A stretch of DNA of 64,000 nt, from NCBI RefSeq assembly GCF_058153355.1, contig NZ_CM177019.1; one strand, written 5' to 3'. Position 1 is the stretch's first letter; every line of letters begins with the position of its first letter. Positions 56,790 through 58,469 of this stretch are shown piece after piece. The position numbers and the translations under genes are program-made. The notes under the pieces are model-generated. The model made no database searches. It was not told the origin of the DNA and saw nothing but the letters and a program-made list of their open reading frames with translations.

Positions 56790-57300
56790 ACATTTTGATA
56801 TTGATTCTGCAATTCTGGGACGTTACACTGTTCAGGCACCTTATAAAACGGGTGCCGGGATTGGCGTCCTGAAATTGATTACTGAGCATAACCGCGCTCA
56901 TGCGGTTTTTTCTTGTCATGAGCATTGCTACGCCCAAATTATGGTGGGGCGTACAGGGCCGACTTTGGTCGGGCCGGGTTCGGTAGTCTCCGGTAACGCC
57001 AACCCTGTACGTCTCACCACCTCTGTGATTGGCGTCCCATGTGGTGAGTTTTCTAAAAAACTGACTACCGGGGCTGTCGATATGACTACCACCACTACCC
57101 ACCCATTCCTCAAAATTGAAGTCGTCAACGGTAAGGCCGTTACTACATCTCTTTTCGGATATCTCAAACTGTTGCGCCTTGCTGGTGTTCCGGGTTATAT
57201 TTCTCGCGTTGCTGTAAATCCAGCAACCGGGCTTCGCATCCCGAAACATCACACAGGGCTGACACGCCATAAGCGTGTTTTTTTGTCTACGCACGTCTAT
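56790..57300 (+). repeat. cassette A of a three-copy tandem paralog array (degenerate copy)
   Basis: Shares a 5' module (TTGATT-17nt-TACACT, GGCACC..GGTGCC hairpin), an SGNANPV-encoding segment and the first 20 codons of the conserved domain (ATG 57082) with cassette C, then diverges; hairpin/T-run terminators at ~56890..56911 and ~57263..57287. Confidence 0.5.
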
Positions 57301-57447
57301 TCAATGGCGGCTCAGATGGGAGCTTCTTCGGAAGCGCCGGTTTTCCCTTGTGTGTCCGGTAATGCGAATCCTGTCTGGGCTGCCACCAATCATGGTTTCG
57401 CATCCGTGGGTGGTAGCTGTAAAGCACACACACAAGGGGCTGTCACC

Positions 57448-57810
57448 ATGACTACCACCACTACTCACCCATTCCTCAAAATCGAAGTCGTCAACGGCAA
57501 GGCCGTTATTTTCTCTTTGCATGTGGCCTGCCACTTTAAGCGCATGCACCAGAACATCGTCGACAAAATCGAGTATCTGAACTGCTCGCGCGAATTTTTT
57601 ACCCGCAATTTCATACCGGGTACTTACCACATCTATGACGACTCTCTGCGTGGTTATTACATCACCCTTGATGGTCTGATGCTGCTTCAGCTTGGGTTAA
57701 GTCTGCGCACAATGCGGTACTACGAGAGTTGCATTGAAGCATTCCATGAAGCTGAAACCGTCCAGGTACATTCCGCTTTCCGTCGTCATCAACGGGAGGT
57801 GCACCTATGA
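57448..57810 (+). CDS. paralog B, conserved ~120-aa domain protein (possible longer form from ATG 57304)
   Basis: SD AAGGGG then ATG; MTTTTTHPFLKIEVVNGKAVIFSLHVACHFKRMHQNIVDKIEYLNCSREFF...; stop overlaps paralog C start (ATGA). Confidence 0.5.
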   Translation: MTTTTTHPFLKIEVVNGKAVIFSLHVACHFKRMHQNIVDKIEYLNCSREFFTRNFIPGTYHIYDDSLRGYYITLDGLMLLQLGLSLRTMRYYESCIEAFHEAETVQVHSAFRRHQREVHL

Positions 57811-58469
57811 TCCGCTACCTGAATATTGATTCTGCAATTCCGGGACGCTACACTGTCTCCGCACCTTATAAAGCGGGTGCCGGGGGTCGCAGCCCGGAAT
57901 TGCTCGAGGCGATATACGACGCGCCAGCGTCTTTTTTATCGTCCATGCTCGCGCACGCCAGAATTATGGTGGGCTGGGCAGGGGAGCCGAAAGGCTCGCC
58001 GGTTTCCTTGAGCGCCGGTACTGCGAACCCTGTTCAGTTCACCACCCATGAGTTTCGCAGCTCCGGTGGTGGAAGTTTTTCACTGCTCAAGGAGGCTGCC
58101 ATCATGGCTACAGTCCCAACTTCCCCATTCCTCAAAATCGAAGTCGTCAACGGCAAGGCTGTTATTTTCTCTCTGTATGTTGCTTGCCATTTCAAGCGAA
58201 TGCACCAGAACATCGTCGACAAAATCGAGTATCTGAACTGCTCGCGCGAATTTTTCACTCGCAATTTCATACCGGGCACTTATCACATCTATGGTGATTC
58301 TTTGCGTGGTTATTACATCACCCTTGATGGCCTGATGATGCTTCAGCTTGGGTTAAGTCTGCGCACAATGCGGTATTACGAGAGCTGCATTGAAGCATTC
58401 CATGAGGCAGAAACCAGCCTGAATCATACCGCTTTCCGTCGTAATCAATGGGAGGCGCGTCATGTGTAA
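57807..58469 (+). CDS. paralog C, 220-aa protein with the same conserved C-terminal domain (second internal SD/ATG at 58104)
   Basis: SD GGGAGGTG 6 nt before ATG 57807; C-domain nearly identical to paralog B, with 7 of 8 differing codons in a compared stretch synonymous. Confidence 0.55.
   Translation: MIRYLNIDSAIPGRYTVSAPYKAGAGGRSPELLEAIYDAPASFLSSMLAHARIMVGWAGEPKGSPVSLSAGTANPVQFTTHEFRSSGGGSFSLLKEAAIMATVPTSPFLKIEVVNGKAVIFSLYVACHFKRMHQNIVDKIEYLNCSREFFTRNFIPGTYHIYGDSLRGYYITLDGLMMLQLGLSLRTMRYYESCIEAFHEAETSLNHTAFRRNQWEARHV

Follow-up and report, generated by a model that had tools for sequence, protein, structure and literature searches.

What does a prophage gain from, and control with, a cassette that it carries three times in a row, each copy behind hairpins of its own? 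The question is raised by positions 56790-58469 of a 64,000-nucleotide (nt) stretch of contig NZ_CM177019.1 (RefSeq assembly GCF_058153355.1), referred to below as the window. A sequence-only reading of this region described three paralogous cassettes with their own regulatory leaders in a prophage early region, reported a domain of about 120 amino acids (aa) that it did not recognise, and proposed an anti-defence or accessory gene family. The present analysis leads to a different answer: the region is very probably a tandem array of three riboregulated switch units (units A, B and C, all on the + strand) of the type known from immI of phages P1 and P7 and from isrK-orf45-anrP of Gifsy-1. The parts are known families and none of them is new. 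What is new relative to the literature found is the stacking of orthogonal units, the orphan unit A, and an "Ash" protein family that appears to be the translation of two RNA genes.

Three isrK-C4 units in tandem

The repeats were recovered where the sequence-only reading had placed its three cassettes. A repeat finder returned a 300-nt pair at 57438/58094 (90% identity), a 73-nt element occurring three times (57070, 57436 and 58092) and an 80-nt pair at 56798/57823 (83% identity), which contains the TTGATT-N17-TACACT element described as part of the 5' module of copies A and C. The GCACC..GGTGC hairpins and the hairpin/T-run sites were found as well, and the array region holds six terminator-like sites against 2.2 expected from shuffled sequence. 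The 5' module is, however, not limited to A and C: copy B has a complete one, so that the "terminator 57263-57287", into which copy A had been said to diverge, is the end of the copy B module, and the three units can be aligned end to end from promoter to codon 20. Nor does this module consist of unclassified attenuators or plain codons, the two possibilities that had been raised. It is an isrK gene, and the leaders comprise two curated RNA families, isrK and C4, which alternate strictly on the + strand, three of each, in an Rfam scan of the whole window. The features of the units are as follows.

Unit A
56801..56829 (+), promoter-like element TTGATT-N17-TACACT; its -10 ends 7 nt before the isrK start
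56836..56912 (+), IsrK-like small RNA (sRNA) A, Rfam RF01394, 60.1 bits
56861-56867 (UUGGCGU) and 56877-56887 (+), C4-target mimics of IsrK-A, predicted duplexes with C4-A
56890-56907 plus U-run (+), intrinsic terminator of isrK-A, from a terminator scan
56937..57024 (+), C4 antisense RNA A, Rfam RF01695, 81.4 bits, with fold and family covariation
56978-56989 (+), C4-A hairpin-2 loop GUUCGGUAGUCU; 56995-57002 (+), its junction AACGCCAA
57025..57084 (+), leader A; junction target 57029-57035, loop target 57063-57072 just 5' of the ATG at 57082
57082..57156 (+), cargo remnant, about 20-25 codons of a Rha-like N-terminus, the frame then continuing stop-free into unit B

Unit B
57172..57201 (+), promoter-like element TTGCGC-N18-TATATT, alignable with the A and C promoters; its -10 ends 7 nt before isrK-B
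57208..57283 (+), IsrK-like sRNA B, RF01394, 62.2 bits
57233-57240 and 57249-57259 (+), target mimics of IsrK-B, from RNA duplex prediction
57261-57279 (+), terminator of isrK-B, from the terminator scan
57300..57390 (+), C4 antisense RNA B, RF01695, 74.2 bits
57341-57355 (+), C4-B loop UUUUCCCUUGUGUGU; 57361-57368 (+), its junction AAUGCGAA
57391..57450 (+), leader B; junction target 57397-57403, loop target 57428-57439 over the AAGGGG Shine-Dalgarno sequence; ATG at 57448
57448..57810 (+), open reading frame (ORF) B, 120-aa Rha-domain protein, phrog_995 E 1.4e-53, under purifying selection against ORF C

Unit C
57826..57854 (+), promoter-like element TTGATT-N17-TACACT, 27/29 identical to that of unit A
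57861..57937 (+), IsrK-like sRNA C, RF01394, 56.4 bits
57886-57893 and 57901-57910 (+), target mimics of IsrK-C, from RNA duplex prediction
57918-57931 (+), terminator of isrK-C, from the terminator scan
57962..58049 (+), C4 antisense RNA C, RF01695, 84.4 bits
58003-58014 (+), C4-C loop UUUCCUUGAGCG; 58020-58027 (+), its junction ACUGCGAA
58050..58106 (+), leader C; junction target 58054-58060, loop target 58085-58095 over the AAGGAGG Shine-Dalgarno sequence; ATG at 58104
58104..58469 (+), ORF C, 121-aa Rha-domain protein, phrog_995 E 1.6e-57

All three isrK matches exceed the gathering score of 50 and cover the full model, and the C4 matches (gathering score 45) cover model positions 1-87 of 87. 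The c4-a1b1 model (RF03163), which overlaps isrK in Gifsy-1 and in contig L064 of the IMG/VR survey described below, stays under its threshold in the window. C4 is recognisable from its structure as well: a long closing helix encloses two hairpins, 99.8% of cells are paired across 65 distinct sequences against 30-47% in slid controls, and 16 of the 27 helix pairs show compensatory double changes, in an alignment that is model-fitted and has hairpin 3 fixed by the search pattern used. The minimum-energy folds of C4-A and C4-C agree with the consensus, and that of C4-B departs from it in the inner hairpins. An RNase P-type GGW motif marks each C4 5' end (AU/GGU at 56941-56945 and 57966-57970, AU/GGC at 57304-57308). 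The "leader segment" CCGGTAAYGCSAAYCCTGT, correctly noticed in all three copies by the sequence-only reading, corresponds to the junction together with the 3' arm of C4 hairpin 2 and can now be identified as the C4 core.

The cargo domain is protein-coding, as had been argued from the sequence. Between B and C, codons 11-100 contain 16 synonymous and three non-synonymous changes, and 15 of the 20 differing bases are at third positions (4/1/15 by codon position); ORFs B and C are thus under protein-level selection, a signal that a codon-level comparison does not find in the C4 segment. The domain itself can be named. Pfam PF09669 (Rha) matches residues 122-202 of a 220-aa form of ORF C (E 9.2e-6, model positions 3-90 of 91), phrog_995 and phrog_518 ("Rha-like", E 1e-14) match the cargo protein, and it is 33% identical to phi80 Rha. 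Weak matches to phrog_373 and to phrog_15204 ("anti-repressor") were also obtained. The AlphaFold model of ORF C (predicted local distance difference test score, pLDDT, 79.6) resembles predicted viral models of a "regulatory protein", an antirepressor and Bro-N proteins, with E down to 1e-6. Profile and structure searches, proposed as a check on the domain, therefore gave a family and predicted folds but no solved structure, since the PDB holds no sequence match to the cargo and no significant fold match (best E 0.096). Longer in-frame forms of ORF C start at the C4 AUG (57966) or at the ATG at 57807, the latter being the 220-aa form annotated as "ash family".

In copy A, homology does stop after about 20 codons, as claimed: 59 of the first 63 nt are identical to ORF B and then 16 of 60, which equals random. 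Unit A seems to have lost its cargo and may now make RNAs only, or serve as an extra translated leader for unit B. Codons 15-23 of ORFs B and C contain a terminator-like hairpin with a T-run (AACGGCAAGGCCGTT ATTTTCTC; 57493-57507 and 58149-58163, + strand); 12 sequence variants in relatives retain 5-6 of its 6 pairs via wobble-compatible synonymous changes, and unit A has the hairpin without the T-run. The element may act as a translation-sensitive attenuator or may merely reflect the codons for NGKAV.

These identifications make an anti-defence or accessory role for a duplicated, diverging gene family with its own attenuators hardly credible. Its position in the early region and its rapid diversification are compatible with such a role in a general way, but the protein is Rha and the leaders are C4/isrK immunity RNAs, a group in which the characterised members govern antirepressors and the induction of prophages (PMC4825925); no search with PADLOC models was made. 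Moreover, the diversification resides in RNA recognition elements that co-vary with their own targets, while the B and C proteins differ at 3/90 core codons. The sequence-only reading had itself named a well-characterised protein family in the same tandem arrangement as evidence that would speak against its proposal, and this is essentially what was found, the arrangement being present in the deposited phage genome LC567835.

Recognition sequences and the predicted switch

In each unit the loop target lies 8-20 nt 5' of the cargo ATG, covering the Shine-Dalgarno sequence in B and C, and the junction target lies about 35 nt further upstream; both are repeated in the IsrK of the same unit. For the junction and loop targets, in that order, RNAduplex gives -10.2 and -15.3 kcal/mol in leader A, -8.1 and -19.9 in leader B, and -10.0 and -17.2 in leader C. 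Loop plus junction pair with their own leader at -25.5 (A), -28.0 (B) and -27.2 kcal/mol (C), against -9.6 to -19.4 kcal/mol with the leaders of the other units, and this cognate/non-cognate pattern repeats against the upstream IsrK copies; the matrix uses loop and junction because whole inner regions are blurred by the invariant GCCGG/CCGG stems. The rule extends beyond the window. Among 89 unique units the own leader is the best partner of all 89 leaders in 81, non-cognate energies attain the cognate median in 0.2-4.7% of comparisons, and 53 distinct loop/junction combinations occur among 106 units. Between units B and C the ORF is 92% identical (228/249) but isrK only 55%, C4 52% and the leader 51%, which indicates that RNA lock and cargo differ in history. 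Since their recognition sequences are mutually different, units A, B and C would act as independent locks.

The target sites of unit B (57249-57259 and 57427-57440, + strand) are CA-rich (UCACACAGGGC, CACACACAAGGGG) and the C4-B loop is GU-rich. This is reminiscent of the seed/target chemistry of GcvB, and cross-talk with host sRNAs is conceivable. An AgvB-type anti-sRNA was considered as a candidate role for unit B and dropped, the AgvB paper (PMC4104026) offering no link to IsrK or to antirepressors.

The following switch is proposed. In each unit a promoter of weak consensus, although conserved, would start the IsrK-like sRNA; the element is kept at a fixed distance of 7 nt 5' of the isrK start in 16 unique units. 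Most transcripts would end at the intrinsic terminator of isrK, and those that read through would carry C4, which RNase P, by analogy with P1, would cut out at the AU/GG site. The hairpin-2 loop and 3' junction of C4 would pair with the two sites in the leader of the Rha-family gene, and because the loop site covers the Shine-Dalgarno sequence, translation would be blocked. IsrK carries copies of both target sites and so would compete for C4, titrating it in cis when part of a read-through transcript and in trans when present as the short sRNA, and turning translation on. Units B and C would in this way control near-identical Rha-domain proteins under separate locks. Predicted folds are consistent with this scheme: in the full unit C transcript the middle of IsrK is paired with the C4 loop and junction, like the published "structure A", and a transcript beginning at the GG site folds as canonical C4.

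Most likely, judging by analogy, each unit works like isrK-orf45-anrP of Gifsy-1 and c4-icd-ant of P1. In Gifsy-1 (NC_010392, - strand; L124 in the survey) isrK lies at 34240-34316 and a C4 match of 69 bits at 34131-34214, 25 nt downstream, followed by STM2616, which is the antirepressor AnrP. Numbered from the isrK start, the orf45 AUGs published at +107 and +119 (Hershko-Shalev et al. 2016, PMC4825925) are the AUG at the C4 5' end and one within the closing helix. Of the compensatory pairs reported there, IsrK G28-C162 and G31-C159 (PMC4825925), G28 and G31 fall within UUGGCGU (+26..+32), and C162 and C159 within ACGCCAA (+158..+164), the C4 junction element. Because the coordinates coincide, "orf45" is the C4 RNA and the processed STnc1160 is C4. 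The text of the IsrK paper (PMC4825925) contains neither "bacteriophage P1" nor the name C4, and a link to P1 c4 is not drawn in those words.

The Gifsy-1 experiments give this comparison its weight. RNA polymerase partly passes the isrK terminator; provision of IsrK in trans increases translation of anrP about 140-fold but the transcript level only 8-fold; and translation of orf45 is required for the effect (PMC4825925). Hfq binding by IsrK and trans-activation of cargo translation are known in that system only (PMC4825925). In lysogens of Gifsy-1, expression of IsrK and STnc1160 is high in every condition tested, and Gifsy repressors are inactivated by antirepressors, not by RecA (PMC7067206). 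Gifsy-1 and the window share the order of promoter, 77-nt IsrK with terminator, gap of about 25 nt, C4, Shine-Dalgarno leader and cargo; in both, an AUG at the C4 5' end opens a frame through C4, and the junction ACGCCAA with its partner UUGGCGU is identical in Gifsy-1 and unit A. In contrast, Gifsy-1 has one unit and the window three, the orf45 frame closes with AUGA where anrP begins, whereas the C4 frame of the window is fused in phase to the cargo (46 codons), AnrP (187 aa, phrog_2379) is of another family than the 120-aa Rha-domain proteins, and the Gifsy-1 unit adjoins the Q region whereas the array lies between immunity and replication genes.

For P1 and P7, work by Citron & Schuster (1990) and Heinrich et al. 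(1995), as summarised in PMC5320573, indicates that RNase P excises C4 at a GGW site and that one loop occludes the ribosome-binding site while another element gives specificity. The immI region resembles the window in a C4 RNA with two variable single-stranded elements and a GGW RNase P site at its 5' end, in targets doubled upstream (a1/b1) and at the ribosome-binding site (a2/b2), and in specificity set by few bases, which leads to P1-P7 heteroimmunity. There is a single unit in P1, in which a small first gene, icd, is translationally coupled to ant. In the window, IsrK, an sRNA apart with its own terminator, takes the place of a1/b1; the cargo is Rha-like; and three codes stand in series. 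The multi-copy C4-like sRNAs of Acinetobacter baumannii are alike in having many homologues per genome that differ mainly in their recognition loops, but those copies are dispersed and their targets unknown, whereas the units of the window stand head to tail with cognate targets and cargo (PMC5320573).

The immunity system of P4 (CI RNA with seqA, seqB and seqC) brings in another way in which the same RNAs could act. According to PMC10111431, it has a homologous RNA fold and logic, and its RNA lies inside the open frame of a Bro/Rha-network gene, the source of the name "Ash"; it works by premature termination of the early operon in satellite immunity, whereas in the window the loop target sits on the Shine-Dalgarno sequence of a Rha gene in a lambdoid prophage. 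By analogy with CI seqA/seqC, pairing of C4 with nascent IsrK or leader might enforce a stop at the isrK terminator or at the hairpin and U-run inside the ORFs, with no need for a block of ribosome binding. The C4 and isrK Rfam models do pick up P4 CI and seqA relatives (PMC10111431), the target mimics are found immediately 5' of the isrK terminator, and the second terminator-like hairpin, at codons 15-23 of B and C, is preserved through synonymous changes. Nevertheless, we consider control by termination in place of translation unlikely: the terminator hairpins of isrK need no partner to form in the minimum-energy fold, the loop target is directly over the Shine-Dalgarno sequence, the Gifsy-1 effect is far larger on translation than on transcript level (PMC4825925), and the hairpin inside the ORFs may simply follow from the codons for NGKAV. 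Control by translation and control by termination are not mutually exclusive. In P1, indeed, the translation block leads to Rho-dependent polarity. A C4-dependent antiterminator switch in isrK was rejected, as the terminator hairpins already form in free RNA. SOS control of the isrK promoters was rejected too: no LexA-box-like site was found near any of the three, and the window as a whole has a chance-level count of matches, 21 where 18.9 are expected.

The B and C proteins would be probable antirepressor-type regulators acting on the DicA-like repressor of the prophage (127 aa, 53290-53673, - strand, NF007257 E 6e-53), which faces a Cro/YdaS-like gene (53773-54012, + strand). This assignment draws on their place behind a C4 unit, on the weak phrog_373 and phrog_15204 matches and on a repressor that has no peptidase or self-cleavage domain; such a repressor fits induction through antirepressors.

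The stop-free frame and the Ash family

The RNA units have one property that looks like protein. The cargo frame is free of stops through promoter, isrK (terminator included) and C4 of all three units (56725-58467, + strand), and the other two frames contain 22-24 stops over the same stretch. Of about 90 unique units, 80% keep the frame of the C4 AUG open over 140 nt or more, and in 87% this frame has no stop anywhere in the upstream isrK (30-33% in the other frames); the surveyed units are related, however, and the counts not independent. Pfam PF10554 (Phage_ASH) matches residues 15-106 of the 220-aa ORF (E 1.4e-17), the matched DNA being isrK plus C4, and relatives are annotated by the prokaryotic genome annotation pipeline (PGAP) as "ash family protein" or as hypothetical proteins. 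In addition, the stop of ORF B overlaps the ATG of the 220-aa frame (ATGA at 57807), an overlap that resembles L15/L16 in phiP27. All this would suit cassettes that are simply paralogous "Ash-Rha" fusion genes (220-243 aa), their 5' modules being codons of an N-terminal Ash domain.

We regard this protein-only explanation as highly improbable. Substitutions in the C4 segment are spread over the codon positions (31/31/38%) with no third-position bias, in contrast to the Rha ORF, and amino-acid identity there (59%) is below nucleotide identity (72%). The helices carry the compensatory changes given above, both RNAs exceed curated Rfam thresholds, and in Gifsy-1 the nucleotides of orf45 are conserved, its amino acids are variable and the RNA species are visible on northern blots (PMC4825925). 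When protein-level selection on Ash was tested for, only the absence of stops proved to be conserved. The family PF10554 and the corresponding PGAP label thus appear to be the translation of two RNA genes; a functional Ash domain is unlikely, but translation through the region may occur. From the overlap of the ORF B stop with the 220-aa ATG one may conjecture that translation from upstream genes overrides both terminator and lock.

A 643-aa ORF (55879-57810, + strand) begins 20 nt after a Rha/Ant-like gene, where relatives carry a DUF4222 gene, and runs antisense to a TumE-like toxin and its helix-turn-helix (HTH) partner before continuing across units A and B; this ORF is probably a shadow frame that has become connected to the open "Ash" frame.

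Several points weigh against reading the locus as three working, independent riboregulatory switches. The open frame through isrK and C4 is unaccounted for by the riboregulation model; the orf45 result explains the open C4 part and leaves the isrK part unaccounted for. The promoter hexamers match the consensus at just 8/12 positions and are rejected by a generic promoter scan. Some non-cognate pairings of unit A are appreciable, at -18 to -19 kcal/mol, so that orthogonality may be incomplete. As for the cargo, B and C consist of the N-terminal domain only, without the C-terminal domain of the Rha-like cargos of about 180 aa. Homology of ORF B/C to Gifsy-1 AnrP was tried and rejected (BLASTP E 0.81, not significant), the sole link between them being a shared weak match to the same part of phrog_373; with no detectable similarity to AnrP, antirepressor activity is an analogy.

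Arrays in relatives and the prophage context

Is the stacking of units peculiar to this prophage? Copy number varies among relatives, as had been anticipated: phiP27 has one unit, E. coli CFSAN029787 and phage PPyecE_EH1910 have two each (the genes of the phage annotated as "hypothetical"), and the window has three. Relatives of the units are also found in Shiga-toxin phages. IMG/VR was scanned for the C4-core pattern, and a covariance model built from local copies then identified 103 C4 RNAs, in 86 of the first 100 loci. Two or more copies are present in 13 of the 86, in tandem in 12 of these with a spacing of 360-1005 nt; three copies were seen in two loci and four in one. In the arrays checked, each C4 comes with an isrK of its own, preceded at the same 7 nt by a promoter element of its own, and the recognition sequences differ within 12 of the 13 multi-copy loci, the exception being L096 with two identical copies. 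Contig L064 (2351-5108, - strand) carries four complete isrK-C4-Rha units in tandem, and L089 (9709-11209, - strand) and L096 (3038-4934, + strand) carry three each. The same 120-aa cargo stands behind at least 10 different recognition types, and in other units the cargo is a Rha-like protein (about 180 aa), a Bro-N protein (about 230 aa) or a small protein (54-94 aa). A truncated first unit followed by unit B is seen in the window, in L001 and in L023, the first unit being of a different type in each of the three, and the unit A junction (..NGKAVTTSLF..) itself recurs in L023. Among 5,426 complete E. coli genomes, 1,726 have partial matches to the array region, the exact A-B-C array is colinear in none, and the best locations cover two of the units. 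A literature search that had most subscription journals outside its reach yielded no paper on tandem C4/isrK arrays.

Two explanations of the stacking can be set against this survey. It is possible, though doubtful, that the array arose neutrally, when heteroimmune phages recombined at the conserved promoter and ORF-start segments, and that a single unit matters, A being a dead relic. The cargo of unit A is truncated exactly after the conserved 73-nt segment, identity between B and C is a mosaic, copy number runs from one to four among relatives, and none of the 5,426 complete E. coli genomes has the exact three-unit array colinear, all of which would suit that history. On the other hand, every unit including A keeps a full-length, high-scoring isrK and C4 with intact cognate sites, the truncated composite recurs with different first units, and 13 of the 86 IMG/VR loci hold at least two units, in tandem in 12 of them, whose recognition sequences nearly always differ. 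Recurrence and intact RNAs do not, however, prove selection for stacking.

Alternatively, and as tentatively, arrays may be selected "key rings" of orthogonal RNA locks. Several C4 immunity RNAs would silence the antirepressors of several heteroimmune phage types, and the prophage's own regulators would stand under independent keys that no single foreign C4 shuts off; in a second layer, the stop-free frame would let upstream ribosomes unfold both RNAs and override the locks on long lytic transcripts. Units without cargo, such as unit A, may belong to such a ring as sources of immunity RNA. The hypervariable recognition code (53 types in 106 units) is as an arms race would lead one to expect under this explanation. 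The benefit of stacking is unproven.

Whichever explanation of stacking holds, loci labelled "ash family" or "hypothetical protein" by annotation pipelines are two curated regulatory RNAs and a Rha gene, and in the cases studied such units control regulators that trigger prophage induction. If the stacked codes do not cross-react, induction and cross-immunity of co-resident prophages would be wired through a combinatorial RNA code, one that is readable from sequence.

The array lies between the Rha/Ant-like gene (55149-55859, phrog_63) with a minus-strand TumE-type pair on one side and replication genes on the other, the latter encoding an O-like initiator, a DnaC-like loader and a DnaB-like helicase. 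The pair consists of two genes.

56437-56724 (-), TumE-like toxin
56076-56531 (-), HTH partner of the TumE-like toxin

In the ORF that follows unit C (58462-58710, + strand), a phrog_5146 match covers the first 48 of 82 residues only, which suggests a frameshift. The same ORF contains a perfect CTGT-N8-ACAG core at 58535-58550, a kind of match that occurs at chance in the window. The best DNA matches are all to E. coli genomes. Other Rfam matches in the window are MicL (360 bits, 40359-40666, + strand) and C0465 (26291-26368, - strand), which together with the DNA matches point to a chromosome of Escherichia type. Two tRNA clusters are also present, at 7772-8070 and 63218-63525 (both + strand), the second inside the prophage and downstream of the replication genes.

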